This document shows positions 5,344 through 52,018 of a stretch of DNA of 64,000 nucleotides, one piece after another; position 1 is the first letter of the stretch, and every line of letters starts with the position of its first letter. Under the pieces are notes generated by a model. That model was not told the DNA's origin. It saw only the letters and a list, made by a program, of their open reading frames with translations, and did not search any database. The translations under genes and the position numbers were made by a program. Location: assembly GCA_048885525.1 (NCBI GenBank), contig JBHLLP010000002.1:32001-96000 (forward strand). Reading direction: 5' to 3'. Origin of the DNA: Candidatus Hermodarchaeota archaeon. GTDB taxonomy: Archaea; Asgardarchaeota; Lokiarchaeia; Sigyniarchaeales; SOKP01.

Positions 5344-5482
5344 ATATATTGAAAAACTGAAAATTAAAGTTATTTCTCAGAATTGAAATAGCCTTTATTT
5401 ATTAGCAAAATTTAAATAATTCCTTTACAAAATTATATTCTATTATAATTAAACAAATTTATTATTTTTAAGGTGATGTTAT

Positions 5483-6217
5483 ATCTCTAAATTTAAAGAA
5501 TCGTTAGGGAACATTCGGGAAAAATATAAAAGTATAAAAGAAATTAATAGAAATATAATTTCCACAATTTTCATAGCTATCATAACTTTATTCATTGGAT
5601 TATTAATAACTTATATTGTTTTTCATTTAATACCTGGAGATCCAATTTTAGCTCAATTACCACTACACTTTACTGAAGAACAGTATATCTATATGGCCAA
5701 TCGATTAGGATTTGAATATAATCCATTTTTAGATACCTATATCCTACAATTTTCTCGCTTTCTTGGTGATCTGCTCAATGGTGCTTGGGGTTGGTCAAGT
5801 TCTTTAAACCGAGGCATGCCTGTTTATGAAATGCTTTCTGAATACACTATATTTCTACATTTGATAATAATAGCTATAATCCCACTAATCATTGGTATAG
5901 TTTATATGATAAAGTCAACGCATCGAAAATTAATAGTTTTCAATACACTAGTAATTGTAATAACTCTGGGTTGTACCTTTGGAGTATATATGGCATTTAG
6001 TGAACTATTTAATATCAGAGGATTTGGATCACTTTTAATAGATGCCTACATCTACTATGATCATTACGTTATAGTTGGATGTTCATTCATAATAGTGATA
6101 ATGTTTGTTCTCATACCTTTAATATCAAATGTTATCCTTAGCGTCTATAAATTGCGATTAAGTAAATCTCTTGAGAGAGATATCGAATCAAATTTGAAAA
6201 ATGCTACAAATGCATAA
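5483..6217 (+). CDS. DppB/OppB-like ABC permease derivative, probable ATC start
   Basis: Frame is open from ATC 5483 (in-frame TGA at 5474) and encodes a TM helix plus 'LIPGDP' before the track's ATG 5693; GDLLNGAWG.S and FNIRGFG.LL.DA are DppB-like. Confidence 0.7.
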   Translation: MSKFKESLGNIREKYKSIKEINRNIISTIFIAIITLFIGLLITYIVFHLIPGDPILAQLPLHFTEEQYIYMANRLGFEYNPFLDTYILQFSRFLGDLLNGAWGWSSSLNRGMPVYEMLSEYTIFLHLIIIAIIPLIIGIVYMIKSTHRKLIVFNTLVIVITLGCTFGVYMAFSELFNIRGFGSLLIDAYIYYDHYVIVGCSFIIVIMFVLIPLISNVILSVYKLRLSKSLERDIESNLKNATNA

Positions 6218-6223
6218 TAAAAA

Positions 6224-7942
6224 TTATGCTTTTTTAGCAAAAGGTTCAAGATCTAAGGCTTCAAAAATATCATCTACTGATTCAATTGTTCCTAAAAAGT
6301 GCCATTCCCCTTCATCGACATTCTGACCAGATCCATATCTCGAAGCCATATTATAAAGTCTATTAAAATTTTCATAATGCAGAGCAACTCTATTTTCTGC
6401 ATAATCTCGAGCAGACCAAGTTGTTATCAAAAATTGCCAATCGCTACTTTCTAAGAGGAGGAGTTCTCGCGCCATCTGCTTCAAGATTTTAATTAGATTA
6501 GGATCACTAGAGTCTTTAAATTTTGCTATAATATCTTCACTCTTAGCTTCGCATTCATATATTCTCTCCCATGTCCACGTCGTCCACTCATTAAGCCACA
6601 CCCAGTGAGATGAAGCTTGACCCCAAGAACCCTCAATTACACTTACCACCTTGCTTGGTGGATTTGCTTCAAGATACAACTTTGAATTTGTCAGATTTAT
6701 TTCGGGATCATCTTCCATCCAACGAAGAATACGTGATATCCACCAATTTCCCTCGAACCACCAGTGACCAAATAGTTCAGCATCATAAGGTGCTACAATT
6801 ATACCTTCATTTCCATTTCTATTTTTATAATCTCTCAAAATATCCTTAACTAGATTTAAATAATGTCCGGCATTTTCATCCAATTTTCCTGGGACATCTT
6901 CGGGCCAATATAACATCTTCTTTCCCAAATCTAGCTTTGGGCTAGTAACTTTCCAATATTTCATCCCTCCAGGCCAGTGCTTCTTATGAAAATCGAGATA
7001 TTCAGCGCAGCCAGGATATCCATGTTCTCCGCTCCATACCACAATCCCTGTTTTTTCATCTCTTGTAAAAAAACCAACTGGTCCAGGAGTGCTGGGATCA
7101 GTAGAAACTAAGTAAGGTTCATATTGAGACTTTTCAAAAGAGGTTGGAATTTCTTCATATTGAGATTCAAATTGTTTCCAGAGTTCTGCAAGCAAAGGAA
7201 ATCGAGCAGCATAGACACCCTGTGATTTACCACCTAAGAGTAATGTGGTATCAATGAAGAAATACTTTAAACCATTTTTAGCAAGAAAATATTCTACACC
7301 AGGGCGATTATATTCTTCCCCAGTTATGGGGTTTTTCCAACGATATCCGGGACGATAAGCGCACTCAGGTAACCATGCACCTGTAGGCGCTCTCCCAAAA
7401 TGACGTTTATAATTATCTACTGCTGTCTTAAATTGGGCATCAATTGATGTTTCTTTAGAAAGCAATGGTGCATATCCATGAGTTGCCCCACAAGTAATAA
7501 TATCAACATGTCCCATATCTTGTAAGTTCTTAAAAGCCCCCACGATATCCTTATTGTATCTGTGTATAAAATTATCTCTAACTCGGTCATAGAACTCCTG
7601 CCACCACTTTGTTAATTTGATTCTCCCTTCTTCATATTTGTTTTCTGTAAAATCTTCAAAATCGAATAAAGCGGCATTATGTTTTTCTTCCAAATAGCCT
7701 AAAAACCCTTCAGTAAATTTGGGATTTCGAAGCATTTCACATAAGACAGGAGTAAGACCAACAGTAAGTTTTGGATGATATCCTTCATCTACGAGTTTGT
7801 ATAATTCTATCAAGAGGGGAATATATGTTTCTGCCGCTGCTTCATTAACCCAATCCATACCATGGGGCCATACACCATGGCCTAATACCCATGGGAGGTG
7901 GCTATGTAAGACCAGACAGAAGGAGCCTAAAATTTCAGTCAT
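6224..7942 (-). CDS. GH57 1,4-alpha-glucan branching enzyme
   Basis: HSHLP, ETYIP, WLPECAY, DAELFGHWW, SSDWQF motifs. Confidence 0.93.
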   Translation of the reverse strand: MTEILGSFCLVLHSHLPWVLGHGVWPHGMDWVNEAAAETYIPLLIELYKLVDEGYHPKLTVGLTPVLCEMLRNPKFTEGFLGYLEEKHNAALFDFEDFTENKYEEGRIKLTKWWQEFYDRVRDNFIHRYNKDIVGAFKNLQDMGHVDIITCGATHGYAPLLSKETSIDAQFKTAVDNYKRHFGRAPTGAWLPECAYRPGYRWKNPITGEEYNRPGVEYFLAKNGLKYFFIDTTLLLGGKSQGVYAARFPLLAELWKQFESQYEEIPTSFEKSQYEPYLVSTDPSTPGPVGFFTRDEKTGIVVWSGEHGYPGCAEYLDFHKKHWPGGMKYWKVTSPKLDLGKKMLYWPEDVPGKLDENAGHYLNLVKDILRDYKNRNGNEGIIVAPYDAELFGHWWFEGNWWISRILRWMEDDPEINLTNSKLYLEANPPSKVVSVIEGSWGQASSHWVWLNEWTTWTWERIYECEAKSEDIIAKFKDSSDPNLIKILKQMARELLLLESSDWQFLITTWSARDYAENRVALHYENFNRLYNMASRYGSGQNVDEGEWHFLGTIESVDDIFEALDLEPFAKKA

Positions 7943-8134
7943 TTTTTAATACTCTTTATAAATAATATTCTATAATTTTAAATTAGTTATAAGTACATAA
8001 TTTTTCATTTCTTAAATACCAAAAAGATGGTAAAAATATTCTAAAAACGTTAAAGTTATATATTCTTATTTAGCTTTTAAACATATATAATTTCCAATTG
8101 AAATTTCATTGAGATACTAAAAAAGTAGTAATTA

Positions 8135-9523
8135 ATGAGTCATATTCCAATAAAAAACCTTAACGAGTTAAAAAAGAACGGAAGAATTATAGGTAAAGCG
8201 AATTACGTATTTACACCAGAGATTTCAAGCTCGATAGGATCTATTCACGGTAGTTTATTCAAACAAAATGAATCTATTGTAATGGGGAGAGATTTCCATA
8301 ATGATAGCCGTATGTTAAAAAGAGCATACACCTCAGGTATGATGTCTACTGGAATTAATCTTTTAAATCTCTCAGATTGCACTTTTCCATTATTACAATT
8401 TACGATCAGACGCTTTGGGGCGAGTGGAGGAGTTTATTTCTCTGGAGGTCATTTATATAGCGAAGATGTAGGAATTAGGTTCTTAGATGCGGGAGGTATT
8501 GAGTTACCTCAATCAGAAATTCAGAGAATAATTGAGTCTTACAACAATTATCCGCAACAAGTAAGGAGAGTAGATCCAAACGAAATAGGACAAATAACAG
8601 CAATACCACAAACTGCAGATGTTTACATCAAATCTCTTCAACAGTTTGTCGATAAAAAAAAGATAAAGAAAGCGAATTTAAAGATTGTTGTGGATTGTTC
8701 CTATGGGCCTACAGGAAAAATAACACCACTTTTAATTAATGAGATTGGAGTCGAAGTTATAGCTTTAAACACTCATTATCGTGAGAGATCTTCAAGTCCA
8801 GTACCAAGTATTAATACTGTACGAAATACAGCAGATATTGTAAAAGCATCAAATAGTCATCTGGGAGTATGTTTTGATGTGGATGGTTCAAGAATATTGG
8901 TGATAGATGAGAATGGGCTTGAAATAAATTTCGAAGACTTATTAATGCTTTTTATTACATTTGATAAAAGAATACAAAGATCGAAAGCTAATACTATTAT
9001 TACCACCCCTTCTATATCTCCAGTTGTGAGAAATTTTATTGAAGATGGTGATTTTCCGATAAAGCTAGTAGAGAACTATCCAGGAGAGATTTCAAGGCAA
9101 ATAAGAGAGGAGCGTGCATGTTTTGCTGCTGCGGATACATTAAAGTTTTATTTCACAGAGTACGCTCCATTTAGTGATGGTAACTTTATTCTACTCAAAA
9201 TTCTCGAGATTATGACTACAGAAAATGATCTTCTTAGTTCACTTACGAGAGGATTTCCTAAAGGAACAAAAATTAATAAAACTATTCCAGTATCAGCAGA
9301 ACTGATTGATAATATACATAATCGATTAAGGGAAATGGCAGATGAACAAGGATATAAATATCATGATATAATAAATGAGTTAAAGATAATCAATGACGAT
9401 ACTTATACAACTATTAAAGTAGCATTATATAGAAATGCATTACTTCTATCTGCTGAGTCAGAAGATAAAGAGAAAGCACAAGAAATGATTGTTGAATTAG
9501 AAGAAATTATATCCAAACTTTAG
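8135..9523 (+). CDS. Phosphohexomutase (PMM/PGM)-fold protein with degenerate active site
   Basis: MGRD..SRMLK, KIVVDCSYG, FDVDGSR; SHNP phosphoserine motif replaced by GGHLY. Confidence 0.8.
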   Translation: MSHIPIKNLNELKKNGRIIGKANYVFTPEISSSIGSIHGSLFKQNESIVMGRDFHNDSRMLKRAYTSGMMSTGINLLNLSDCTFPLLQFTIRRFGASGGVYFSGGHLYSEDVGIRFLDAGGIELPQSEIQRIIESYNNYPQQVRRVDPNEIGQITAIPQTADVYIKSLQQFVDKKKIKKANLKIVVDCSYGPTGKITPLLINEIGVEVIALNTHYRERSSSPVPSINTVRNTADIVKASNSHLGVCFDVDGSRILVIDENGLEINFEDLLMLFITFDKRIQRSKANTIITTPSISPVVRNFIEDGDFPIKLVENYPGEISRQIREERACFAAADTLKFYFTEYAPFSDGNFILLKILEIMTTENDLLSSLTRGFPKGTKINKTIPVSAELIDNIHNRLREMADEQGYKYHDIINELKIINDDTYTTIKVALYRNALLLSAESEDKEKAQEMIVELEEIISKL

Positions 9524-9626
9524 AATTATATTTTCTGTCTAATAAGGAATTAAAATTTAAAATAAATAGAACCAATTATATAATAATATAAAAATAACTT
9601 AAGATTCAAAAAAAGATGATCTAATC

Positions 9627-10283
9627 ATGGCATTTGACATTAGTTCAATAATAATTCTGATAACTTTAAGTATTATATTTGTAATTTTTTTAGTTTTTGA
9701 TTTATTTGGTAGGAACGAGAAATATGGATATTTAGCTTATATTGTTGCGGTAGTACCGGTTAATTATTTTTGGGCTATAGGAGGAGACCCTCTATTCGCT
9801 TATATCCTTCTTTTCCTTTTATGGATTGCTACAATACTACGAGATACAATAGGTGTATACCTCAAAAAAGATAAAGAAATAAATGAAATACTTATGTATC
9901 TTGCTCTTGGAATACTTATCCAATTGATTATTACTGCAATTATACCAGAAACAATTCCAGTATTACAAAACACTACAGTAAAATATTGGTTTTTCTGGTT
10001 ACCTAATGTACATTCAGCAATTTTTAGTGCTTCAATGGCATTAGGATTTAAAATTAGTGCTACGATTTTAATATTTCTAGTTATTATTCCATTAATCCTC
10101 GATATTAAAGATGAAGAAATACCTTTACCTATAGTTATAGTATTCGTTGCCATATTTGTTATCCCTTTTCTATATTTAAGTTATGTATGGATTCCAGAAG
10201 CAATGGGTGTGCTAACATTTCTATTTTCAGTCATTTTATTTGTAATTCTATTGCTTATAACAAGAGGTAAAGAATCAAAATAA
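9627..10283 (+). CDS. Hypothetical multi-pass membrane protein
   Basis: About 7 hydrophobic segments; no motif recognised. Confidence 0.7.
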   Translation: MAFDISSIIILITLSIIFVIFLVFDLFGRNEKYGYLAYIVAVVPVNYFWAIGGDPLFAYILLFLLWIATILRDTIGVYLKKDKEINEILMYLALGILIQLIITAIIPETIPVLQNTTVKYWFFWLPNVHSAIFSASMALGFKISATILIFLVIIPLILDIKDEEIPLPIVIVFVAIFVIPFLYLSYVWIPEAMGVLTFLFSVILFVILLLITRGKESK

Positions 10284-10299
10284 AATATCTTAATTCTTT

Positions 10300-11610: not shown

Positions 11611-11903
11611 AGGTAATACATCGATTTAAATGATTTATTTCGCTTGAAATTTTTAATGTTTTATCTATATAAAATGTTAATCCTTGTGTTCTTTTTTTCC
11701 AATTTTAACACTATATAAATAATTTTATACCCTTAAAATCTAAAGGACTTAAAAAAAGATTAATTTAAAAGATTAGTTTATATAACCTAGTGTAACTCAC
11801 AATTTAAATAATCAATTATTTATTTATTTCATAGATCTTATTTTATGATATAAAAACAAATTTATTATTAATTCATATTAAAATTTGGATTAAATATTAA
11901 ATA

Positions 11904-12902: not shown

Positions 12903-12943
12903 TTTGTGTAAAGCTTTATTAATTTTATAATTTAAAGAAAAAA

Positions 12944-13381: not shown

Positions 13382-13421
13382 ATGAAATCACTGTTCTTTT
13401 TTATTTTTCAATTTAAAAAAA

Positions 13422-13889
13422 TTATAAATTAAGATTAACATTAACCTCGATTCCTGCTCTGACACTTTGTGTTACTATACAATATTGCTCAAAGAAGTTA
13501 ACTCCGTTGCTTGTTTCTTTAAGGCATTGCTTTGCTCTTTTAAGTGCCTCAGGGTCGGTAATTGTAGGATCTACTTCAACGTTGATATTTTTTATTCTCC
13601 AAAATCCTTTTTCATTTCTCATAATAGTCACTTCCGCTTCTGCCTTAAAATCATCTACATGTAAATTTCTTTTCTTCAAACAAAAGATAAAACTGGCGCT
13701 TAGGCAGCCAGTGACTCCCAAAGCTAAAAGCCTTGAAGGATTTGGTCCAAGCATATCCACTTCTTCATGATGTTCTTCATCAATATAACAATCTTTAACC
13801 TTCATATTGCCTAAATCGCATTTAAAAATCATTTGCGATTCAGATTCACCTAGTTTAATACCAACTTTAGTTTTTATTTCATTCGAAAT
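13422..13889 (-). CDS. OsmC/Ohr family protein (start ATT 13889 or GTG 13898)
   Basis: GPNPSRLL...GC and YCIVTQSV; the track's GTG lies inside the GGTGA SD motif, and ATT-S-N-E aligns with paralog M-S-H-E. Confidence 0.82.
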   Translation of the reverse strand: MSNEIKTKVGIKLGESESQMIFKCDLGNMKVKDCYIDEEHHEEVDMLGPNPSRLLALGVTGCLSASFIFCLKKRNLHVDDFKAEAEVTIMRNEKGFWRIKNINVEVDPTITDPEALKRAKQCLKETSNGVNFFEQYCIVTQSVRAGIEVNVNLNL

Positions 13890-13910
13890 AAGAATCACCC
13901 TATTAGTATA

Positions 13911-14426: not shown

Positions 14427-14507
14427 AGCTATCCACTTAAGAGATGATTTTTTTATTTTCTTTAGATTAAATAATTAAAAGTTTTACAAAAACTTTTTAA
14501 TTTTGAT

Positions 14508-23749: not shown

Positions 23750-24385
23750 TTATTTTTCAATAATTAGATCTTTAGTTTTTTTTAATCTGACATAATTTTC
23801 TCTGTCAACTTCCTCTAATATATCTTTTATTAGTTTTATATTAGATTGTAATTGAGGAATTATGATGTTTTTTAAACCATTTATCCTACGATTGATTTTC
23901 TTAAAGTTTATTGCTTGCTTTAAAAGTAAATCTTCAATTTCAGAAAATTCAATTATCTTATTAAAAAATGATTTTAAAGATTTAATTAAATCATCTAAAT
24001 AATGACTCGTATTGTCAAATGTATAAGCAGGTAATTTTTCTTCTTGAATTAGTTCATATGAAATTTGGGGATTAGTAATTCCTACTACTTTTTTGTAAAA
24101 AATCTCAATTGTAGGTTTGTATTGAATTCTACTTAAATTACTTATCAAAAATAATTCATTTTTACCCATCTCTTCATAAGTAAGATTTAATAATTTCATT
24201 GATTCTTTAAAAAGGGTGAGAAATTCTTTTCTAGATTTATTATAATCTTTCCATATAGAACGAAGTAAAATAATTAATTGTTCTCTTCTTAATTCTAAAA
24301 AATTTTCTCCTTTTTGAGCAAAATTTAATCTCTTACGTAAATTTATTAAGTTCGTTTTACTGGGTTTTATCTCTCTAAAACTTAT
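23750..24385 (-). CDS. atpD: A/V-type ATPase subunit D, probable ATA start
   Basis: RRINGL.NIIIP and LEE.DREN..RLKK; conserved N-terminus IKPSKTNL..L..RL..A..G...L..RRE lies upstream of the track start and begins at ATA 24385 (211 aa). Confidence 0.88.
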   Translation of the reverse strand: MSFREIKPSKTNLINLRKRLNFAQKGENFLELRREQLIILLRSIWKDYNKSRKEFLTLFKESMKLLNLTYEEMGKNELFLISNLSRIQYKPTIEIFYKKVVGITNPQISYELIQEEKLPAYTFDNTSHYLDDLIKSLKSFFNKIIEFSEIEDLLLKQAINFKKINRRINGLKNIIIPQLQSNIKLIKDILEEVDRENYVRLKKTKDLIIEK

Positions 24386-24388
24386 TCT

Positions 24389-25780
24389 TTACACCTTTCC
24401 AGAATAATATTTATCAATAAATTTTTGATGAATTCGAAGTAATTGATTTTCAGTTAAATTACCTAATACATCCCAAGCGATATTAAGAGTATGTTCGAAA
24501 TTACGGTTCTCATCTGGTTGTTGATTTAAAAATGTTTGTTCAAATTCTTTCCCGTATTTCAACAAATTATTCTGTTCATAGTTTAACCCATCTTCTCCGA
24601 CAATTGAAATAAGGTCTTTAACTTCTAAATAATTTGAATAAGATGCTAATAATTGAGAGGATGTGTCTGCATGATCCTCTCTTGTTTTTTCACTACCAAT
24701 AGCATCCTTCATTAAACGTGATATTGAAGCTAAAACTTCAAAAGGAGGGTAGATACCTTTTTGGTGCAAACTTCGACTTAAAACTAATTGCCCTTCAGTG
24801 ATGTATCCTGTTGTATCTGGAATAGGATGAGATATATCATCATTAGGCATAGTTAAAATAGGTATTTGAGTAATTGAACCCTTTTTACCTTTAATTTTTC
24901 CTGTTCTTTCATAAATAGATGCAAAATCTGAATAGATGTATCCTGGATATCCTTTTCTGCTAGGAATTTCTTCCTTTGCTGAACTAAGTTCTCTTAACGC
25001 CTCAGCATAGTTCGTTATGTCTATTAGAATAACAAGAACATGCATGTCTTTTTCAAAAGCAAAGTATTCTGCAGTAGTCAAAGCTACTCTAGGTATAATT
25101 AACCTTTCAATTATTGGATCATCTGCAAAATTTATGAATGAAATTATATTTTGGATTGTACCCCGTTCTTGAAATTTATTTAAAAAATAAATTGCTTCAT
25201 CTTGAATAATCCCAATTCCACAAAATATAATTACAAAAGGTTCTTCTGAAGTAACTTTTGCCTGAGTTGCTATTTGAGCAGCTAACTTATTGTGTGGTAA
25301 TCCTTGTGCGCTAAAGATTGGAAGTTTTTGGCCTCTAATTAAAGTAAATAACCCATCTATAACAGATACTCCTGTTTGTATAACATCGACAGGATATTCT
25401 CTCGCATATGGATTAATTGGAAGGCCATTTATATCTCTTTGAATATCAGTTAGAACCTCAGATTCTGAAATCATTTTAGTTTTTATGTCTATGGGTTTAC
25501 CTAGTGAATTAAAAGTCTGCCCAAACATATCTTTAGAAATGTTTACTTTAAAAACATCTTCCGTAAATATTATCTCAGCATTTTCAGATGACAATCCAGA
25601 AGTATCTTCAAAAACTTCCACAACTATTACGTCCTCATTCAATTTTACTATCTGACCCGTACGAGTTTTGCCATCATCTGTGTTAATTTTAACAATCTCA
25701 CCATATTGAGCATCATGTTCGTTTTTAAGAAATACTAATGGACCTATTATTTGGTGAATTTTTCTATAAATTACACTCAT
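24389..25780 (-). CDS. atpB: A/V-type ATPase subunit B
   Basis: RGQKLPIFS..GLPHN, DITNYAEALRE, PDTTGYITEGQ, SISRLMK. Confidence 0.95.
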   Translation of the reverse strand: MSVIYRKIHQIIGPLVFLKNEHDAQYGEIVKINTDDGKTRTGQIVKLNEDVIVVEVFEDTSGLSSENAEIIFTEDVFKVNISKDMFGQTFNSLGKPIDIKTKMISESEVLTDIQRDINGLPINPYAREYPVDVIQTGVSVIDGLFTLIRGQKLPIFSAQGLPHNKLAAQIATQAKVTSEEPFVIIFCGIGIIQDEAIYFLNKFQERGTIQNIISFINFADDPIIERLIIPRVALTTAEYFAFEKDMHVLVILIDITNYAEALRELSSAKEEIPSRKGYPGYIYSDFASIYERTGKIKGKKGSITQIPILTMPNDDISHPIPDTTGYITEGQLVLSRSLHQKGIYPPFEVLASISRLMKDAIGSEKTREDHADTSSQLLASYSNYLEVKDLISIVGEDGLNYEQNNLLKYGKEFEQTFLNQQPDENRNFEHTLNIAWDVLGNLTENQLLRIHQKFIDKYYSGKV

Positions 25781-25782
25781 TC

Positions 25783-27621
25783 TTATTTAAATACCCCATG
25801 GGTTAATTTTAAAGATTCTATTTCATTCAGTAAATTACTTTTTAAATTGTCAATTTTGTCGAAATTTTCGTTCTCAATTGTACGATTAATTCTTAAAATG
25901 TCACGTATCACTTTTAGTTCTTTAATTTCTTCTATAAAAAATCCTTTTTCTAACAGTTCTTCGCCTTCTTTATATAATAATAGAATAATTTTAATCATTC
26001 CTAAAAGTTTTTTCGCGTTTGTAAAGTTATCAATATTATCGAAAGCATTTTGGATTAAAAACCCATCTTTGATTAACTTAGCAATAAATATAATTAATCG
26101 TTGATCTTCTGGGAGATTTTCCTCTCCGATAAGTTGTACAATATATCTTAACTCATTATCTTTTGAGAGAATCTCATTTACTTGTTGACGACAATCATGC
26201 CAATCTATATCAATTTCTGTCCAATCTATATCTCTTTCATACCACCATTCGGAAATATAATCTGGATAATTAGAATAAGAATTTAGCCAATTAATTGCAG
26301 GATAGTGCTTTGAATATGCTAACGCAGCATCTAAAGCCCAGATACCTTGTACAAAATTTTTAGTCGTAGCTGTAACTGGTTCACTAAAATCTCCTGCTGG
26401 AGGTGAAATAGAACCTATAATAGTTAAAGATCCTACTTTTTCTTCTTTAGTTTCTTTTTTTCCAATTAATTTAACAGCTCCAGCCCGTTCATAAAAACTT
26501 GAAAGTTTTGAAGGTAAATATGCAGGATAACCTTCTTCTGCAGGCATTTCTTCTAATAATCCAGAGATTTCTCTTAAGGATTCTGCCCATCTTGATGTGC
26601 TATCTGCAAGAACTGCAACGTCATACCCCATATCTCGATAGTATTCAGCAATCGTTACACCAGAGAAGATGCTAGCTTCACGTGCTGAAACTGGCATGTT
26701 TGAAGTGTTAGCAATCAAAATTATTCGATCTAATAGAGGTTGACCAGATTTAGGATCAATTAATTCAGAAAATTGTTTTAAAACATCGGCTATCTCGTTA
26801 CCACGTTCGCCACAACCTACAAATACAATTACATCGGCATCACACCATTTTGCTAATGATTGTTGAATGACTGTTTTACCGGTCCCGAAACCTCCAGGAA
26901 CTCCAATTGTACCACCTTTAGTAATGGGAAATAATAAATCTATTACTCTTATCCCTGTGATTAAAGGTTCATTAGGTAATTTTCTCTCTTTAAAGGGACG
27001 TGAAATAGTTATTGGCCATTTTTGTAGCATTGAAAAACTTTTTTCTGTATCCCCAATTTGCAATTTATAGATTTTATCAATAATTGTAAAGTCTCCTTCA
27101 TCTGCTAGGAAAGTTAATTTTCCTGAAGTATTAGGAGGTATCATTATTTTGTGTTGTATAATTGGAGTTTCTTGGACTGTACCAATAATATCACCACCAC
27201 TTACATATTTATCAATATTATCATTAGGTAAAAAATGCCATTTCTTTGAACGTGAAAGGGAGGGGATTTCTAATCCTCTATGTAATCCTCCACTTTTAAA
27301 AAAATCGAAAGCTTCTTGTAAAGGTCTTTGAATTCCATCAAAGAAATTCCTCAGTAATCCAGGTGCTAATTCCATAGAAAGAGGTTCTCTCAAATTAACA
27401 ACTTCTTCATTGATTCGTAAATTATTAGTATCCTCAAAGCATTGACAAACTACATGATCAGAATATATTTGAATAACTTCTCCTAAAATGTTATGTTTAG
27501 ATATTTTAACAAGATCATGAATTCGAATCTGGGTTTCTAGTCCTTTAACTTTAATCAATGAGCCAATTACAGCTGAGATATACCCAACTTTAAAATTGGT
27601 TTCAGAATTGGATTTGTTCAT
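25783..27621 (-). CDS. atpA: A/V-type ATPase subunit A (canonical copy)
   Basis: GGFGTGKT, GCGERGNE, ADSTSRWAE, SPPAGDFSEPV. Confidence 0.95.
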   Translation of the reverse strand: MNKSNSETNFKVGYISAVIGSLIKVKGLETQIRIHDLVKISKHNILGEVIQIYSDHVVCQCFEDTNNLRINEEVVNLREPLSMELAPGLLRNFFDGIQRPLQEAFDFFKSGGLHRGLEIPSLSRSKKWHFLPNDNIDKYVSGGDIIGTVQETPIIQHKIMIPPNTSGKLTFLADEGDFTIIDKIYKLQIGDTEKSFSMLQKWPITISRPFKERKLPNEPLITGIRVIDLLFPITKGGTIGVPGGFGTGKTVIQQSLAKWCDADVIVFVGCGERGNEIADVLKQFSELIDPKSGQPLLDRIILIANTSNMPVSAREASIFSGVTIAEYYRDMGYDVAVLADSTSRWAESLREISGLLEEMPAEEGYPAYLPSKLSSFYERAGAVKLIGKKETKEEKVGSLTIIGSISPPAGDFSEPVTATTKNFVQGIWALDAALAYSKHYPAINWLNSYSNYPDYISEWWYERDIDWTEIDIDWHDCRQQVNEILSKDNELRYIVQLIGEENLPEDQRLIIFIAKLIKDGFLIQNAFDNIDNFTNAKKLLGMIKIILLLYKEGEELLEKGFFIEEIKELKVIRDILRINRTIENENFDKIDNLKSNLLNEIESLKLTHGVFK

Positions 27622-28330
27622 AATACTTTAAGTATTCTGTTATTTTTCCCCTCTGTTTATTGATAAATTTTTCATATTCTTTTTCAATTTCTTTAATTTC
27701 TGAATCATCTATAATTTTAGTAACTTTGTTTTGGATAAATGGTGATGCCTTATCTATCAAATTATTAATAGTGTAATCATACGAGATAATCCCTCCTATA
27801 AGTGATATTTTGAAACCTCCTATAAAATCACGTAGATCTTTGTTAATTTCAACAGGATCTTTAAATAAATTTCCAATTTTATCAAAATTTTTGATAAAAT
27901 AATTATAGTCTTTTGAATTAAATAAAATTTCTATGGAATGAGCTTTATCCATGGTATTTTTAACTTCTTCAATAGATTTTAATAAGTAATCAATATATCC
28001 TGAATAATTTTTCTTAATTTTGTTTTCAATAAGAATAAATAAGCTTTTTTTTAACTCCTGAATTAGATTATTCTTTAATCCAAGAAATTTATTTTTTCCT
28101 TCTAAAAGTGTTGATGATAAGGATTGATTTAGAAACTGCTCATAAGTTTCTATAAGATGACTTTTTAATCTTTGAGATCTTTCATTACTTCTTTCTAAAA
28201 ACCTTTTCATAATTTCAGCTTTTTGAAATAAGGTTTTTTGACTTAATTCTTTTATCTCTCTTTGAGCCTTCTCGATAAAGTAATACCCTAATTGACTAAA
28301 TTGTTTCTTTAATTCTTTTTCTTCTGAAAT
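27602..28330 (-). CDS. atpE: A/V-type ATPase subunit E, probable ATT start
   Basis: Position between F and A, FIGGF motif, helical N-half; frame open 40 codons upstream of the track ATG to ATT 28330, 1 nt after the atpF stop. Confidence 0.75.
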   Translation of the reverse strand: MSEEKELKKQFSQLGYYFIEKAQREIKELSQKTLFQKAEIMKRFLERSNERSQRLKSHLIETYEQFLNQSLSSTLLEGKNKFLGLKNNLIQELKKSLFILIENKIKKNYSGYIDYLLKSIEEVKNTMDKAHSIEILFNSKDYNYFIKNFDKIGNLFKDPVEINKDLRDFIGGFKISLIGGIISYDYTINNLIDKASPFIQNKVTKIIDDSEIKEIEKEYEKFINKQRGKITEYLKYYEQIQF

Positions 28331-28331
28331 T

Positions 28332-28667
28332 TTAACTCAACTCATTTTTAAAAACAATATCACCTAAAGCATCTTGAATCTTATTAAAGATAATGTCTCC
28401 TTTCTCAATGTTAGTTTCAAAAATATCTGGTAAAATAAATACAAAGGGCTTTTTATTAGCTTTTTTAAAATCCAATAAAAAGTCAATTATATCATCTCGC
28501 AATGGTATAGATACAAGCAATATACCAATTGATTCTATTTTTATTAAATCTAAGAATTTTTGTAAAAATTCCTCCTCATTTCTAACAACAGTACCTTCTA
28601 TTCCTAAAAGTCCTAATAATATTACTATTTCATCCTCTCCTATGATATGAATTTTTTGAACTTCCAT
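28332..28667 (-). CDS. atpF: A/V-type ATPase subunit F
   Basis: IHIIGEDE...LLGLLGI, IGILLV, ILPD, IQDALG; operon position. Confidence 0.85.
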   Translation of the reverse strand: MEVQKIHIIGEDEIVILLGLLGIEGTVVRNEEEFLQKFLDLIKIESIGILLVSIPLRDDIIDFLLDFKKANKKPFVFILPDIFETNIEKGDIIFNKIQDALGDIVFKNELS

Positions 28668-28978
28668 TAAAAATCAAGTCCTACTTTTTCTATAATTAGT
28701 TTTTGTAAATTTCCTGAATTTTTTTTAAAATCGATTTCAATTTTTTTAAGTGCATTATCCAAATTTTTTTCATAAACATTAGTTTCTTTGTCTATATCAA
28801 CAGTTAGATTTCCTATGGCCGTCTGTACAAGTACATTTATTTTGGTCAGATATTCTTCAAATTTTTGGTTTTGTTTTTCTCTAAATTCTTCGATCTCTTT
28901 CAAGTTGAGGCTTTTAGCGTCACTTATTAAATTATCATAAACTTTTTCAATATCCTTTACCCATTCAAAAATATCCAT
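28667..28978 (-). CDS. A/V-type ATPase peripheral stalk subunit H/G
   Basis: 103-aa helical charged protein (VKDIEK...ISDAK) inside the ATPase operon. Confidence 0.6.
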   Translation of the reverse strand: MDIFEWVKDIEKVYDNLISDAKSLNLKEIEEFREKQNQKFEEYLTKINVLVQTAIGNLTVDIDKETNVYEKNLDNALKKIEIDFKKNSGNLQKLIIEKVGLDF

Positions 28979-29026
28979 TAATCATCCCGTTTCTTACTCT
29001 TTTTCTTATTCTTTATAATAATGTTA

Positions 29027-30088
29027 TTACAGGATTTTATATTTTTCATTGATAATACTAACTAATTTTGGTAAAATGTATAAACGTATTTCTTTATCTT
29101 TTTTGATTAATATTTCTATAATCTTAAAAATTGTTAGATAATCAATGTCTCCGGTTCTAATCTTAAATTTTCTAAAAAAATAATCTAAATATAAAGTTTC
29201 AACTGACCATATTAAATGATTTTTATCAATTTTAAAATTTGAAAAAAGTGATCTGAGTTCTTTTATTTTACCTAATTTTTGATATAGCACTGAGATAAAA
29301 TCTTCTATATTTGATTGTTCGGTTAAAAATAACAGAATGTTACTGTCAAAGAATAAATATGTGTCAACTAAAAATTGTTGTAACAAATTTCTATCAAAAT
29401 TATTATTAATTCCTCTATAAATTATATTTAAATTATAAATCTCAGAGATATATCTTATATAAAAAGAAATTATTGTTTTTTCTTTTGGTTTTAAATATTT
29501 TATCTCATCTATTAAGGTATTGTAAAATAATTGATCTAAAAAAGCTTCAAGAACAAAAATTTCATTAGTTTTTTTAAAATAAAGAATTCCTTCTCTTATT
29601 ACTCTATTATATTTAGTACGTTTCATAAATAATTGAATTTGATCTAAAGAGGATAATTCAATTAGTTCTCTCATGAACTCTGTATTATTTAAGTACTTTT
29701 CAACTAACATATTTACCATTTGCAGTTTTTCTTGAGTACTCATACCTAAAATTGTACCAAGGATGACATGTTTAATATTCATCACTTCATATTTAGACAG
29801 AAAATTCTTCAGAAAATTCTTCATATTTTCCGGAGAATATGATAAAATTTTACCAATTAATTTTATATATGTATGGAAAAGTGCTCTTTCAATATCTTCT
29901 ATTGTATATGTATTAAAACTAAGACCCGGATAATAAACCTTAATATATTCAATAAACTCATTAATATCAGTAATTTCATCTAACTTTTGAAATGTAGATT
30001 CATCCATTATTAGTTGTTTTAAAAAACCAATCTTAATTAAAGTATATGCGTAGTTGGGGACGGTAACACTCGTAAGAAATTCACTCAT
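29027..30088 (-). CDS. atpC: A/V-type ATPase subunit C (d)
   Basis: NYAY, YEVMNIK, LEAFLDQ, EIYNLNIIYRG; size and operon position. Confidence 0.8.
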   Translation of the reverse strand: MSEFLTSVTVPNYAYTLIKIGFLKQLIMDESTFQKLDEITDINEFIEYIKVYYPGLSFNTYTIEDIERALFHTYIKLIGKILSYSPENMKNFLKNFLSKYEVMNIKHVILGTILGMSTQEKLQMVNMLVEKYLNNTEFMRELIELSSLDQIQLFMKRTKYNRVIREGILYFKKTNEIFVLEAFLDQLFYNTLIDEIKYLKPKEKTIISFYIRYISEIYNLNIIYRGINNNFDRNLLQQFLVDTYLFFDSNILLFLTEQSNIEDFISVLYQKLGKIKELRSLFSNFKIDKNHLIWSVETLYLDYFFRKFKIRTGDIDYLTIFKIIEILIKKDKEIRLYILPKLVSIINEKYKIL

Positions 30089-30124
30089 TAAGTAATTTTT
30101 ATATATTAGTTAAAAAAGTTATGT

Positions 30125-30493
30125 TTAAGCTGCTGGTGTTGGGATCTTTGTCCAAAGTAAAATTCCAACAATTAAACCATAAAGTGCTAAGGCTTCACAT
30201 AAAGCTACAACTAAAAAGGCTTTAAAAAATGCTTCTTCTCTCTCTGAAAGAGCTGAAATTGCTGCTGTGCCAACTGTTTTCATAGCCAATGCACTTCCAA
30301 TTACAGAAAGACCAACTGCCAACGAAGCACTTATAGCCATTGCTGCGGCAGTTACTGAATTATAGTAATCAAATGTATCAGGGATTTGTGCTGCAACAAA
30401 AGTAATAATTCCATTTGACGTAAAAATTACTAAGAAAATCAATACTACTTGAAATAACCCTAAACACAAATAAAATTTCTGTTTGCCGTTCAT
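30125..30493 (-). CDS. atpK: A/V-type ATPase proteolipid subunit K (c)
   Basis: Hairpin with ALCEALALYGL ion-carrying Glu, plus extra N-terminal hydrophobic segment. Confidence 0.9.
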   Translation of the reverse strand: MNGKQKFYLCLGLFQVVLIFLVIFTSNGIITFVAAQIPDTFDYYNSVTAAAMAISASLAVGLSVIGSALAMKTVGTAAISALSEREEAFFKAFLVVALCEALALYGLIVGILLWTKIPTPAA

Positions 30494-43722: not shown

Positions 43723-43975
43723 TTAGAAATAGATATATTTACTAATTTTTGATTGGTTATACAATTAACCATAGTAAACACTATATTATTATAGCAATGT
43801 TTGATATTTAAATATAGTGATTATTTAAATAGATATAAATTTACTTTTTAATTAAATAAATAACCTTTTAAGTAAAAGTATTTGTCTATAAGAGAAGTAA
43901 ATTTATATACTTTTATATATAATATCTATATATAAAAAGAAATTTTTTTATAATATAATCTATTGGTGAAGTGAA

Positions 43976-44200
43976 ATTTCTTCTAGCCAATCACAAAGAA
44001 AATCTACCTTAGAAATAGTAGAAAATATTTATAATGCCTTAGATGATGGGAAATTTCATACAATAAGCGAAATTTCTGAAAAGGCAAAGTCGAACTGGAT
44101 TACAGTAAAAAATCAAGTAGAACTTATTAAAAAAATTCAAGATTTACCTAAAATTGATATAATTCATGCCTCAAAGCAGATATTAGTGAGAAAAGTATAA
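43976..44200 (+). CDS. Small winged-helix/HTH protein absent from ORF track, ATT start
   Basis: 74-codon ORF ISSSQSQRKSTLEIVENIYNALDDGKFHTISEISEKAKSNWITVKNQVELIKKIQDLPKIDIIHASKQILVRKV; GGTGA 6 nt upstream. Confidence 0.75.
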   Translation: MSSSQSQRKSTLEIVENIYNALDDGKFHTISEISEKAKSNWITVKNQVELIKKIQDLPKIDIIHASKQILVRKV

Positions 44201-44312
44201 TTTAGAAAGGATATAAACTTGTATTGTAAGCAGTATCAGAAAAAAATTGTATCTTATACTTACTTTAATGTTAATAAACAAATATTACCCTATTTATCAG
44301 AAATATGAGATA

Positions 44313-44360
44313 AATTATTGTTGAGAAAATTTTTAGTCAATAATTACTGTTGAGAAAATT
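44313..44360. repeat. 19-nt direct repeat, 2 copies, 1 mismatch
   Basis: aattattgttgagaaaatt (44313) and aattactgttgagaaaatt (44342). Confidence 0.6.
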
Positions 44361-44545
44361 AAAAAAGACAAAAAAGAAGAAGCCTAAGTAAAGAAGCTTA
44401 TAGTATTTACAGATAATTACAAATTGTAAAAATTTAAAGGCTCAAATAGAATTTCTGACTAAATCAATAAATCTTCCTAGGAAATATGATATCTCTATAG
44501 AAGGTTTTTTTTAAAAAATCTAAAAAAAAAATATTAAAAATTAAT

Positions 44546-45460: not shown

Positions 45461-45470
45461 GAGTGTATTC

Positions 45471-47525: not shown

Positions 47526-47552
47526 ATAGTTTATTCATGACATAAAAAAGCA

Positions 47553-47888
47553 GTGGAGGTGAAAACTAAAATAAAAGATGAGAAAATATGTCAGATATGT
47601 AGCTTTCCAAAAGAATTATGTATCTGTGAAAAATTAGGAGCCGAGGATCAACAAATAGAAATTTATAATGAAAAAAGAAGATGGGGGAAAAAAGTGACCA
47701 TTGCTAAGTTTAATGGTAACTTTAATATTGATTTAGATAATCTTATTACTAGAGCAAAGAAAAAGTGCGCTTCTGGTGGAACATATGGAGACAATTATAT
47801 TGAAGTACAAGGAGATCATCGTTTTAGATTAAAAAAATTTCTAATTAATGAAGGTTTCCCTAAAGAAAAAATTTTAATTGAAGATTAA
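47553..47888 (+). CDS. sui1: Translation initiation factor aIF1 (SUI1)
   Basis: CQICSFPKELCICE zinc knuckle, RRWGKKVT, GGT, IEVQGDHR; start GTG 47553/47559 or ATA 47571. Confidence 0.92.
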   Translation: MEVKTKIKDEKICQICSFPKELCICEKLGAEDQQIEIYNEKRRWGKKVTIAKFNGNFNIDLDNLITRAKKKCASGGTYGDNYIEVQGDHRFRLKKFLINEGFPKEKILIED

Positions 47889-48065
47889 AATTGTGAATGA
47901 TGCATTAATTGGTTTAAAGCTATAGATGATTTTAGAGAATTTATAATAGATCTGGATTATATCTTTATTATTATAGAGATTTAAAAGCCTCTCTTTTGAA
48001 ATCAAAAAAAATATAAAAAATCAATAAATCACTTGAAAATTAATGATATTCTTCTTAATCCTATC

Positions 48066-48545
48066 TTATTTTTCCTTTAGAAAAAACATTTTTCTCTTGG
48101 AATGAACTGCTTCAAAAGATTCTTTATAAATTTTGATGTCTTCATGTATTTCTTCTAATTCTTCATTTTTCAGCATATTATCAAAAATTCTTTTTGTTGA
48201 GAGGTATAATTTAGGAACAAATGTATCTATTTGAGATAATTGGTAAGCTAGTTCTTTTATTGAAGAAAAATCTAATTTCAAATTAATTTCTTTCCTTTTA
48301 ATTCTTTCAATAATTTTCTTCTCCAATTTTCTTCGTGAAATATTACTCCATGTTATTTCATACACGAAATAATTGACAGACTGAACTGCTTCAGTTAAAA
48401 GGGCGGTTCCTGTTGCTATAAAAATGCTTCCCGTAATCAAATATGCTGTTAAAGTCCCTAATGCTAGCGTTAATGATCTATAAATTATACTTTTAACAAT
48501 ACTTTGTTTCCACTCTATTTTCGACAATTTTTTTTTTAATGTCAT
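48066..48545 (-). CDS. DUF2061-like membrane domain plus helical C-terminal domain
   Basis: SIVKSIIYR...AYLITG...YFVYE.TW. Confidence 0.65.
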   Translation of the reverse strand: MTLKKKLSKIEWKQSIVKSIIYRSLTLALGTLTAYLITGSIFIATGTALLTEAVQSVNYFVYEITWSNISRRKLEKKIIERIKRKEINLKLDFSSIKELAYQLSQIDTFVPKLYLSTKRIFDNMLKNEELEEIHEDIKIYKESFEAVHSKRKMFFLKEK

Positions 48546-48681
48546 CTCAAAGTTTTTATAATTCCTATTTTATAAGAATTTCAGTTAATATATTTAATAA
48601 TTTTTTTCTTAATTAATCAATAATGAATATTCTCCAAATTGTCTTTTTGAAAAAAAAGTTTCTTTAAAAAAAAATGAAGCA

Positions 48682-49344
48682 CTAGTCATATTCTAAAGAT
48701 TTATAACAAAACCACCAATCATAGCACCTATATTCCTTAGATCTTTGTTCTGCTGTTTCTTCATCTGTGGGGGGTGGTATTATAACTTGTTGACTAATTA
48801 ATTCATTATTTGGCCAATTTGCAGGAATTGCAACCTTCTCTTGATCTGCATTTTTCAGGGCTTTAATTATTCTAATAATTTCATCTATATTTCGACCAAG
48901 TTCTTGTGGATAAAAGAGAATTACTCTTATTACTGTCTTTGGATCAACAATAAAGACAGCTCTAACAGTATTAGGTCCTTTACCAAGATGGATCATGCCC
49001 AGTCTTTTAGCAATATTACCATTATCAGCAATTATTGGAAATGGTATTTTTACTCCTAATTTTTCGGCAATCCATTCTATCCATTTTAAATGTGAAAAAA
49101 CCTGATCTATGGAAAGTCCTACTAATTCACATTCTAATTTTTGGAATTCTTCATATCGCTTTGCAAAAGCTACATATTCAGTTGTACACACAGGTGTAAA
49201 ATCTGCAGGATGACTAAAAAATACAAACCATTGTCGTTTAAAATCTTTTGGAATTTCTTTTTTACCGTGAGTTGTTATTACTTCCATCTCTGGAAATTTA
49301 TCACCAATTAATGGAAATGAATTAGAATTTTTAGAGTTATTCAT
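48682..49344 (-). CDS. Peroxiredoxin (archaeal Prx6/TDXH type)
   Basis: [28 protein letters not shown]-terminal CYDWWFC. Confidence 0.95.
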
Positions 49345-50023
49345 ATAATTTCACCTCAGATATTTTTTTTATTATATCTTATTATATTCTTTTTAATTAG
49401 ATATCAAATTTTAATCGATAATCTTATGGTTTTGATATTTTTTTGTTTATGTAATCTATTATTATCAAATTTTTGGGTTCTAATTTCATTTTTCCTATAT
49501 CTTTTGATATCTCATTTAAAACATTCTTTTTATTAGAACGATCTTTTATCCTTGAGATTATTTTAATTTTTAATTCTTTGTTCCTCTTAAACCTTAAATT
49601 ATTTTTCTTGGTTTGTTCTAATTTTCTAATATTTCCTGATTTTAAGTATTTTTTATTATTTTTTTCATTGCTATGTGTCAAATTTTTCATCTGTTTATTA
49701 TATTCTATTAATTCTATTATTAAATTTAACTATTACTTAATTTTCTCTGAAGTAATTTAAAATAATAATTTGAGTCTTATAGGATAATTGATTTGGTTAG
49801 TTTTTATAAACTATATATCTAAGGATTAATTTTAGATTTCCTAAGTTAATAAATTTCAAACCATTTTTATATATTTTCTTAAAAAATACATACCTTTTAA
49901 TTTTTTTGTTTTAAAAAGATAAAAATTAAAATTATTTTATTGTATAGACATTATTAGAGTAATTATTTTATAATTTAAGGTTATTCCTATGCTCTCTTTT
50001 AAGTTTCAAATTACATAATAGAT

Positions 50024-51043
50024 TCAATTTTTATCTTTTTCTAATATTGATTCATAAACCTTAATGTAATCATCAACCATTCTTTCAACAGAAAACTTTT
50101 TTTCAACCCATCTTCGACATTCTGAGCGATCAATAAGATCAATTTTTTTTAATGCATTAATTGCTTCTTCATGAGAATTGACTAAAAAGCCAGTTTTTCC
50201 ATTTACAATTACTTCAGCCATACTACCTTTGTTAAAAGATATTACGGGTGTTCCACAAGCCATTGCCTCTACAACTGACAATCCAAATGCCTCAGGAATA
50301 TTAATAGGGTTTAATAATGCATAAGCTCCTCCTAATAACTCATCTCTTTTCTTTGGATCAGCAATACCAACATACTTGACTAATTCATCATCAAGGAAAG
50401 GTTCAATATTTCTTTTAAAATAATCCTTATCTTGAATAATTCCTGCTAAGATTAATTTCATTTCAACTTTAAGAGCCATTTCAATAGCTTCTTTAGCACC
50501 TTTATCATGATGTAAACGACCAAAAAATATTAGATAATCTTTTGGATTAGATTTAAAAGTAAATTGGTTCAAATCTATACCATGATATACCGTAGCTATA
50601 TAATTTAATTCTGGAATTCTAGCAGCATTACTTATAGAAACGTAATAACTCTGATTATTGTATTTCTTATACACAGGTAAAATTTTGGGAGATGAGATAC
50701 CATGAATTGTTGTTACCACAGGAGTGGATGTCATTTTTATATATGTTAATGGTAAAAAATCAAAATGGTTATGAATAATATCAAAATCATCTCCTCTTTC
50801 GAACAATTCAGATATATGTAAACATTCCCATACTTTTGGAATTATTTGATTATCTTCTTCATAACCATGTTCACAAACACCAACAAGATTTGCTTTAGTA
50901 ATGGAATTTTTTGTAGCAAATAAAGTGACATCAATCCCTTTCTTTATAAGTCCTTCTGTCAATAAAGAGACTATATATTCCCATGGTCCATAAGAGCGAG
51001 GAGGAGTACGCCATGCGATTGGTGAGAGTATTGCTACGTGTAT
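50024..51043 (-). CDS. GT4 glycosyltransferase, probable ATA start
   Basis: EAFGLSVVEAMACGTP; family N-terminus HVAILSPIAWRTPPRSYGPWE lies upstream of the track TTG and begins at ATA 51043. Confidence 0.9.
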   Translation of the reverse strand: MHVAILSPIAWRTPPRSYGPWEYIVSLLTEGLIKKGIDVTLFATKNSITKANLVGVCEHGYEEDNQIIPKVWECLHISELFERGDDFDIIHNHFDFLPLTYIKMTSTPVVTTIHGISSPKILPVYKKYNNQSYYVSISNAARIPELNYIATVYHGIDLNQFTFKSNPKDYLIFFGRLHHDKGAKEAIEMALKVEMKLILAGIIQDKDYFKRNIEPFLDDELVKYVGIADPKKRDELLGGAYALLNPINIPEAFGLSVVEAMACGTPVISFNKGSMAEVIVNGKTGFLVNSHEEAINALKKIDLIDRSECRRWVEKKFSVERMVDDYIKVYESILEKDKN

Positions 51044-51045
51044 TA

Positions 51046-52005
51046 TTAGTCACCTAATACAAAATTTTGCTTTTCAAGCCATTTAAGAATTTCTGAAAGA
51101 CTTGCGGTTGCCAAAGCTATAGAACTATCAGCACATCCATAATAAAGTAGGATATCATCATTTTCTTGAATCCAGCCACATGGAAAAACAACTTTATCAA
51201 CATCACCAAAGATTTCATACGATTCTTTTGGAGAAAAGACCCACTCATCAGATCGTGCGATTACTTTGCAGGGATCTTTTAGATCTAAAAGTCCAAGTCC
51301 TAAGCGATAAATGATACCACTAGCGGTTGTTTTAACTCCATGGTAAAGTATTAACCATCCAGAATCAGTTTTCAATGGAGGGGGAGATAAACCAATTTTA
51401 TTTGCATCCCACCAACTTCCATCTCTAGCGGGAATAAGAAGTTTGTGATCACCCCAATGTTTAAGATCCGGTGAAAAAGCAATCCATATATGGGCACCAG
51501 TTCCTGACATTTTAGCAACGGGTCTATGAAGTATTGCCCATCGATTATTAAACTGAATTGGAAATATAGCAGCATCCTTGTTCTCTGGTGGCATAATAAC
51601 CCCATAACGATTAAAATGCTTGAAATCTTTGGTACATGCTAATGAAACTAAAGGTCCAGCTTTAGAATAGGCAGTATAGATAATAACCCATAAATTTTTT
51701 TCTTCCAAGAATGTAATTCTAGGATCTTCAATACCCCATATTTCTTCTGGATAAGTCTTAGGATTTGGTGTCATAGTAGGTTGGGTATCAATATGCCAAT
51801 TACTTATTCCATCTTTACTACGAGCTAAAGTAAAATGGGAAATTCCTCTTTTATCTTCTACTCTCATTAGAAGTATAATTTCATTATGAAATTTAATTGC
51901 ACCTGCATTGAAAACTGTATTCGCAAGATAAGGCAAATCTTTTATTGAAATAATTGGATTGGCTGGATGCCGCTTAAAAAGCTCATTAAAATTTGATTTT
52001 ACGAT
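51046..52005 (-). CDS. GH130-like (DUF377) glycosidase/phosphorylase, probable ATC start
   Basis: VFNAGA, GIEDPRIT, NKDAAIFP, LHRP, LYHGV, VVFPCG; LFKRHPANPI lies upstream of the track TTG. Confidence 0.88.
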   Translation of the reverse strand: MVKSNFNELFKRHPANPIISIKDLPYLANTVFNAGAIKFHNEIILLMRVEDKRGISHFTLARSKDGISNWHIDTQPTMTPNPKTYPEEIWGIEDPRITFLEEKNLWVIIYTAYSKAGPLVSLACTKDFKHFNRYGVIMPPENKDAAIFPIQFNNRWAILHRPVAKMSGTGAHIWIAFSPDLKHWGDHKLLIPARDGSWWDANKIGLSPPPLKTDSGWLILYHGVKTTASGIIYRLGLGLLDLKDPCKVIARSDEWVFSPKESYEIFGDVDKVVFPCGWIQENDDILLYYGCADSSIALATASLSEILKWLEKQNFVLGD

Positions 52006-52018
52006 TAGATTAACACCT

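Follow-up and report, generated by a model that had tools for sequence, protein, structure and literature searches.

Candidate AUA, AUU and AUC translation starts behind Shine-Dalgarno motifs in a family of Lokiarchaeia

We analysed a stretch of 64,000 nucleotides (positions C2:32001-96000, hereafter the window) from the genome of Candidatus Hermodarchaeota archaeon, a member of the Lokiarchaeia, in which six genes appear to start at ATA, ATT or ATC (collectively ATH, or AUH in the mRNA) instead of at a canonical ATG, GTG or TTG codon. These genes encode a DppB/OppB-like ABC permease fragment, subunits D and E of the A/V-ATPase (atpD and atpE), a small protein of 74 residues, a GT4 glycosyltransferase and a GH130 phosphorylase (Table 1). 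The genome comprises 3.58 Mb in 87 contigs with a GC content of 29%, and its family is represented in our genome collection by 135 species genomes from 13 genera. A preliminary description of the window had proposed that these genes are initiated at ATH codons with the help of a Shine-Dalgarno (SD) motif, and the coordinates that it gave for the six sites, for two extra sites and for an ATG control all proved right. As it had claimed, GGTGA is found exactly 6 nt ahead of the ATH codons at 5483, 43976 and 51043, in the same arrangement as at the control ATG, and AGGTG precedes atpD and the GH130 gene with spacers of 6 and 8 nt. An SD motif at the spacing of ATG genes is present in five of the six main genes, atpE being the exception. 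Where GGTGA is combined with a 6-nt spacer, the TGA of the motif itself is the nearest upstream in-frame stop.

Table 1. Sites in the window with ATH or control start codons (nt, nucleotides; aa, amino acids; HTH, helix-turn-helix)
Gene	Span	Strand	SD motif	Spacer (nt)	Start codon	Stop codon	Upstream in-frame stop
DppB/OppB-like ABC permease fragment	5472..6217	+	GGTGA 5472-5476	6	ATC 5483	6215-6217	TGA
atpD (A/V-ATPase subunit D)	23750..24396	-	AGGTG 24396-24392	6	ATA 24385	23752-23750	TAA
atpE-like (subunit E)	27602..28334	-	no GGTG-type SD		ATT 28330		TGA
Small 74-aa gene, HTH-like in the preliminary description	43965..44200	+	GGTGA 43965-43969	6	ATT 43976		TGA
GT4 glycosyltransferase	50024..51054	-	GGTGA 51054-51050	6	ATA 51043		TGA
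GH130 phosphorylase	51046..52018	-	AGGTG 52018-52014	8	ATC 52005		TAG
Peroxiredoxin-like gene (ATG control)	48682..49355	-	GGTGA	6	ATG 49344		TGA
OsmC-like gene	13422..13898	-	AGGGTGA		ATT 13889, or in-frame GTG 13898 within the same SD
Second aIF1/SUI1 paralogue	47555..47888	+	GGAGGTGA 47555-47562		ATA 47571 (candidate)

Reading frames and domain boundaries, the latter taken from Pfam and NCBIfam profile matches, bear out the earlier claim that none of the six genes has an ATG, GTG or TTG between its upstream in-frame stop and its conserved N-terminus. The first canonical codon lies 70 codons past the ATC in the permease gene, 62 past the ATA in atpD (an ATG, codon 63), 40 past the ATT in atpE (an ATG), 27 past the ATA in the GT4 gene (a TTG) and 23 past the ATC in the GH130 gene (a TTG). 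Canonical calling and the ATH start yield open reading frames (ORFs) of 174 versus 244 residues for the permease, 149 versus 211 for AtpD, 202 versus 242 for AtpE, 312 versus 339 for GT4 and 296 versus 319 for GH130. The HTH-like gene has a single canonical codon, a GTG four codons ahead of its stop. Because this codon lies so near the stop, callers restricted to ATG, GTG and TTG miss the gene entirely, and canonical ORF calling returned nothing for it. Its 74-residue product has no family match in our profile searches. Two of the ATH codons closely follow another gene: the ATT of atpE lies 1 nt past the TAA (28334-28332) of an upstream atpF-like gene, and the ATA of the GT4 gene lies 2 nt past the GH130 stop.

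Canonical ORF calls thus exist for five of the six genes, and it could be supposed that the genes are truncated or decaying, with translation from the first downstream ATG, GTG or TTG and a non-coding or relic stretch ahead of it. However, a canonical start would remove 51 residues of the ATP-synt_D domain and the first strand of GT4. Counted from the ATA, residues 12-205 of AtpD match positions 1-195 of the 196 in Pfam ATP-synt_D, and, counted from the ATT, residues 27-209 of AtpE match positions 21-198 of the 203 in the NCBIfam subunit E profile. Pfam Glyco_transf_4 begins at residue 25 of GT4, at or ahead of the first TTG, and position 32 of the Glyco_hydro_130 profile falls on residue 28 of GH130, whose first TTG is residue 24; we count both of these matches as beginning at or ahead of the first TTG. 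The NCBIfam Opp/Dpp profiles match the permease from residues 23-32 onwards, well before its first ATG, and in its paralogues from related genomes the distance from the ATG to the first transmembrane segment and a PGDP motif is about 30 residues. Furthermore, the SD motifs stand at start-site spacing from the ATH codons and not from the downstream codons, the HTH-like gene has no usable canonical start, and the extensions are conserved at the protein level with synonymous changes. In favour of decay, the permease covers only the first third of the family profile. Translation from the downstream codons is nevertheless very unlikely as an account of these sites. The permease itself (244 aa, window 5483-6217) matches only the first 115-140 or so positions of 300-residue family profiles and may be a truncated or degenerate copy. 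We found no close orthologue of it, only paralogues, in 30 family genomes and five close metagenome-assembled genomes (MAGs), and the exact position of its start codon is given by the SD motif only.

We then compared the start sites with those of orthologues, a check that the preliminary description had suggested. The atpD gene starts at ATA behind AGGTG or GGGTG in all nine related MAG loci (72-93% protein identity), and synonymous changes surround the conserved ATA. When ten species representatives of the family are aligned, ATA, ATT or ATC stands at this position in all but one, L018 (MSFRK), which has ATG; in other Asgard families (GC 36-49%), ATG or TTG is found there. The ATT of atpE is kept in seven of seven relatives, one of which has GGTGA-N6-ATT. 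Six GT4 orthologues have the ATG of MHVA opposite the ATA at 51043. Opposite the ATC at 52005, three GH130 orthologues have ATG and two others have ATA. The HTH-like gene has an orthologue of 84% identity that retains GGTGA-N6-ATT. The alignments therefore place ATH where orthologues have their ATG in GT4, GH130 and one atpD, with conserved N-termini upstream of the canonical starts. Since ATH codons occupy the start positions of orthologues, which sometimes have ATG there, true start sites evidently change between the ATG and ATH states. The genome is a MAG of 87 contigs, and sequencing or assembly errors might have changed ATG to ATA, ATT or ATC. Yet the identical ATH codon recurs in independent MAGs of other studies (atpD in 9/9, atpE in 7/7, aIF1 in 25 genomes, and the HTH-like gene), and the genome-wide signal described below repeats in another genus. 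The recurrence in independent MAGs rules out assembly error, and the probability that we assign to this explanation is negligible.

A start-site signal at ATH codons is also visible across the genome. For ORFs of 100 codons or more, we counted codons among the first 15 and measured the distance of ATH behind GGTG. In this spacing comparison, of a kind proposed earlier, ATH frequency peaks 7-8 nt behind GGTG, as do ATG and TTG, and other codons dip there. At this distance, 48 of 3541 ATH codons were found versus 58 of 20352 other sense codons (odds ratio 4.8, p = 6e-14). A whole-genome count of GGTGA-N6-XYZ followed by at least 100 open codons returned ATT 13, ATA 10, ATC 4, ATG 9, TTG 5 and GTG 0 times, compared with 3 for AAA and 0 for AAT, which are commoner codons. 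Most of the non-canonical codons other than ATH in this count have an ATG one to three codons further on, and most ATH instances have none. In total, 57 ATH candidates stand behind GGTG (ATT 33, ATA 16, ATC 8), versus 63 for ATG and 32 for TTG or GTG; once background is subtracted, about 40 ATH and about 47 ATG starts remain in excess. If any 5-mer of the full SD motif is accepted, the ATH excess is about 38 and the ATG excess grows to about 163. ATH codons thus account for about one third of the starts that have a GGTG core and for about 15% when all SD-led starts are considered. Relative to the roughly 3,600 long ORFs of the genome, their share of genes is at least 1%. The three ATH codons are used roughly in proportion to their abundance. 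The near-cognates with a change at the second position (ACG, AAG and AGG) show no start signal at SD spacing (0/950). CTG was found at this spacing in 2 of 98 cases, one of them in a zf-AN1 gene, and may be used as a start codon occasionally. Four of the six window genes do have Ser as the second residue, as had been pointed out, but Ser at position 2 was discarded as a diagnostic feature: genome-wide it is found in 19% of the ATH genes with an SD motif versus 15-16% of ATG genes.

The stretches between the ATH codon and the first canonical codon (47 genes, 1,967 codons) have a codon-position composition of the coding type. The frequency of G at codon position 1 is 0.26 in these extensions, 0.28 in coding sequences and 0.09 in upstream non-coding sequences. 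By composition, 89% of the extensions are classed as coding, compared with 95% of true coding sequences and 9% of upstream regions. Among 20 further candidates outside the window, 16 have a Pfam match, and the domain begins ahead of the first canonical start in 12 of these, often at profile position 1-4 and within 6-33 residues of the ATH codon. The 12 genes encode an M28 peptidase, CorA, a rubrerythrin, a Roadblock/LC7 protein, an ABC ATPase, an XPD-type helicase, a HIT protein, an aldehyde:ferredoxin oxidoreductase (AOR), a radical SAM protein, an aminotransferase, the RNase P protein Pop5 and ribosomal protein uL16. A canonical start would remove the Walker A region from the ABC ATPase and the XPD-type helicase, and the rubredoxin-like domain from the rubrerythrin. 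Core genes are, with high probability, among the users of ATH starts, judging from these domain matches and the conserved start sites: those for ATPase subunits D and E, uL16, Pop5, CorA and aIF1.

We also examined 400 kb from each of two other genomes. In another genus of the same family (28.6% GC), 8 of 386 ATH codons lie 7/8 nt behind GGTG, versus 3 of 2419 other codons (p = 1e-5), and ATG was found there once. In a closed Asgard genome from another family (30.5% GC), the counts are 0/300 for ATH, 4/2154 for other sense codons and 9/189 for ATG. AT-richness alone was rejected as the cause, because this control genome at 30.5% GC lacks the ATH signal. ATH starts are very likely a heritable trait of the whole Lokiarchaeial family and not an accident of a single assembly, as comparison of the genomes suggests.

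The 3' end of the 16S rRNA, which carries the anti-SD sequence, reads ...GGATCACCTCCT (also given as ...GGAUCACCUCCU). We found one initiator-type tRNA gene (C32:9579-9692). Its anticodon is CAU, its anticodon stem contains three G:C pairs (G29-31:C39-41), it has A1:U72, and a 32-nt intron follows right after position 37/38. Neither a second initiator nor a paralogue of either half of this tRNA was found in the genome, and a second initiator tRNA with another anticodon was therefore dismissed. Leaderless initiation was also rejected, as the SD motifs stand at canonical spacing and several of the genes are operon-internal, 1-13 nt past the upstream stop. ARAGORN predicts 14 tRNA genes without its intron mode and 35 with it, and Rfam 24; the differing counts indicate that many tRNA genes are interrupted.

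Taken together, these data argue that translation truly starts at AUA, AUU or AUC behind an SD motif, throughout the family and in about 40 genes of this genome, which we regard as highly likely. Pairing of the 16S rRNA 3' end with SD motifs of the GGUG(A) type would bring an AUH codon located 6-8 nt downstream into the P site. The single CAU initiator tRNA would then read the first two bases and tolerate a mismatch at the third, and the protein would most likely begin with Met. Because the initiator tRNA is an ordinary one with CAU and is not accompanied by a paralogue, initiation most likely uses Met-tRNAi with a third-position mismatch. We infer, in line with the preliminary description, that this lineage reads the third start-codon position loosely. 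Weak AUH codons may tune expression. Special decoding would be a different solution, by a second non-CAU initiator tRNA, a reassigned AUA or initiation with an Ile-tRNA. Mitochondria do start at AUA and AUU, through a modified C34, tRNA detection is incomplete with so many intron-bearing genes, and base modifications are invisible in DNA. On the other hand, the one initiator-type tRNA has CAU, standard identity elements and no paralogue of either half, and ATT, ATA and ATC are all used roughly by abundance, which fits third-position tolerance. Special decoding therefore appears highly improbable.

Several observations weigh against initiation at ATH codons or limit its extent. In this genome, atpE has no GGTG-type SD, only the weak match GAGTTGAG. 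The start codons of the OsmC-like gene and of the aIF1 copy in the window, both put forward earlier as further cases, are ambiguous, because in-frame GTGs lie within their SD motifs and could serve as starts, although the sites themselves are present. In the OsmC-like open frame, the GTG is codon 4 and the ATT codon 7, and the Pfam OsmC match (residues 48-151) cannot choose between them. In the aIF1 copy, GTGs at 47553 and 47559 fall inside the SD motif, and Pfam SUI1 spans residues 26-97. The atpD genes of four family members likewise have an in-frame GTG inside the SD motif. In addition, ATH starts do not have a stronger SD motif (mean longest match 5.5 nt versus 5.7 nt for ATG, p = 0.2), nor are they specifically operon-internal or coupled (21% versus 44% for ATG genes with an SD motif), so that a compensation by the SD motif is not visible quantitatively. 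About 10% of the ATH candidates may be false positives. One candidate, an ATT in a zf-AN1 gene (contig C4, minus strand, locus L165 and the 10 codons ahead of it), was rejected because the codon proved internal to the gene. The first Cys pair of this gene lies upstream of any ATG, GTG, TTG or ATH candidate, and the gene probably starts further upstream, at GGTGA-N6-CTG.

The GTGs within AGGTG-like SD motifs raise the question of whether initiation occurs there, or whether the genes are translated by read-through or coupling from an upstream gene, for example as a B-D fusion, given that the TAA of atpB is in frame with atpD in this genome. However, in each of the six main genes a stop codon stands between the ATH codon and any GTG of this kind, and two relatives whose atpB stop is out of frame with atpD still keep the SD motif and the ATA. 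The upstream stops that precede GT4, GH130 and atpE are in other frames, and the HTH-like gene has no upstream gene on the same strand. This explanation is thus quite unlikely, and initiation at the ATH codons remains the better reading of these sites.

The ATPase locus has some further features. Its genes are arranged on the minus strand (window 23750-30493) in the order C - (103-aa coiled-coil, G/H-like) - F - E - A - B - D, which differs from the usual H-I-K-E-C-F-A-B-D. The atpB and atpD genes share one frame here, split by a single TAA, a relation that is absent in two relatives. The SD motif of atpD holds an in-frame GTG directly followed by the atpB stop (GTG-TAA), forming a "start-stop" unit at 24383-24396 of the window.

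We then investigated the aIF1 genes. Two aIF1/SUI1 paralogues are present in the genome: the main copy (G000:C32:32284-32595) and an additional one within the window (47553-47888). In the 25 family genomes with a match, from 12 genera, the main aIF1 gene shows a stop, one to three codons, ATT or ATC, and then KDDDICP...; it has no canonical start and has an SD-like AAGGTTGTGA upstream, and ATG is found in 0 of 25. At the position aligned with this ATT or ATC, the window copy has ATA. One other genus has this extra copy as well, there too beside the GT4/GH130 cluster. In other Asgard families, the aligned aIF1 start is mostly ATG, or TTG. One aIF1 gene from another Asgard family (locus L103, genome G007) seemingly has an ATA start behind AGGAGG and lacks any canonical codon ahead of its zinc-knuckle motif, and a weak aIF1 start of independent origin is possible there. 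A comparison with other Asgard aIF1 proteins showed a few substitutions specific to the family at conserved columns, but none of them could be linked to a known fidelity residue. In Sulfolobus solfataricus, 30S complexes bind an AUU mRNA unless aIF1 is present (PMC4705826). Since aIF1 rejects AUU there and its own gene starts weakly here, we propose a feedback: the AUU start of aIF1 would set how stringently start codons are selected, through negative feedback, in the same manner as infC does for IF3 with its own AUU start. By this analogy, aIF1 abundance and AUH usage would be linked. Tentatively, and with somewhat less than even confidence, the system may thus be an archaeal counterpart of infC and eIF1 autoregulation, in which AUH codons serve as regular, tunable weak starts for core genes and the published Asgard proteomes are systematically clipped at the N-terminus.

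SD-led initiation at AUH codons is a known kind of event, here at an unusual scale in an archaeal family near the eukaryote stem. ATT, ATC and ATA are listed as start codons in NCBI translation table 11, the AUU starts of Escherichia coli infC and pcnB are textbook examples, and bacterial genomes have a handful of AUH starts each. The infC and pcnB cases resemble the present ones in being SD-led, with a third-position mismatch to the initiator anticodon and a weak but conserved start. The parallel with infC is close, as the gene of the fidelity factor itself, here aIF1, starts at AUU or AUC. Unlike in bacteria, about 40 genes and up to one third of the GGTG-led starts are concerned, and the machinery includes aIF1, aIF1A and aIF2 and not IF3. 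The eukaryotic eIF1 gene, which has its AUG in a poor context, is autoregulated. aIF1 is the homologue of eIF1, and its gene starts at ATT or ATC in all family genomes examined; most Asgard aIF1 genes elsewhere start at ATG, in contrast to this family, and a feedback is suggested here by analogy. Mitochondrial initiation at AUA and AUU, which depends on a modified C34 (f5C) and takes place without an SD motif, shares with the present case the use of isoleucine-family start codons in AT-rich genomes. It differs in that an SD motif is present here, and we found no sign of a code change. Within the Lokiarchaeia, a "rare ATT start codon" has been described for the tubulin AtubA, where it restores the first beta-strand (Sci Adv 2026, PMC13394414). 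That gene, from a Kariarchaeaceae MAG, is similar in that a missing first strand is regained with a ribosome-binding site at a plausible distance, but it is a single case described as rare, whereas the starts reported here are systematic, conserved in the family and enriched genome-wide. Our literature search brought up no account of AUH codons in systematic use, nor of an aIF1 gene that starts at AUU. Reviews state that SD motifs are rare in Lokiarchaea, which was derived from annotated starts, and do not mention AUH (PMC12993045, PMC7531240).

The consequences for annotation are visible in public databases. Of the 120 best public AtpD homologues, 96 are truncated at the N-terminus and a further six begin at another Ile codon, which bears out the prediction of the preliminary description that such proteins would be misannotated as truncated. 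Its premise that annotation normally allows only ATG, GTG and TTG does not apply uniformly: the NCBI pipeline called a 211-residue AtpD from ATA on one related contig. Asgard proteins are heavily mined for eukaryote-like features, and gene calls of the Prodigal type would truncate or miss the genes concerned if ATH starts serve 1% of all genes or more and a large part of the SD-led ones; for AtpD, 80% of the public homologues of this group are clipped. Structure predictions and expression constructs based on clipped models would lack the initial strand or helix, the published Asgard tubulin being a case in point. The view that SD motifs are rare in Lokiarchaea likewise rests on annotations that leave out ATH starts. 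In this family, a natural system close to the eukaryotes would combine an eIF1-type factor with frequent near-cognate initiation, the gene of the factor itself having a weak start codon. A lineage with an ATH-started aIF1 would make the evolution of start-codon stringency control directly testable.

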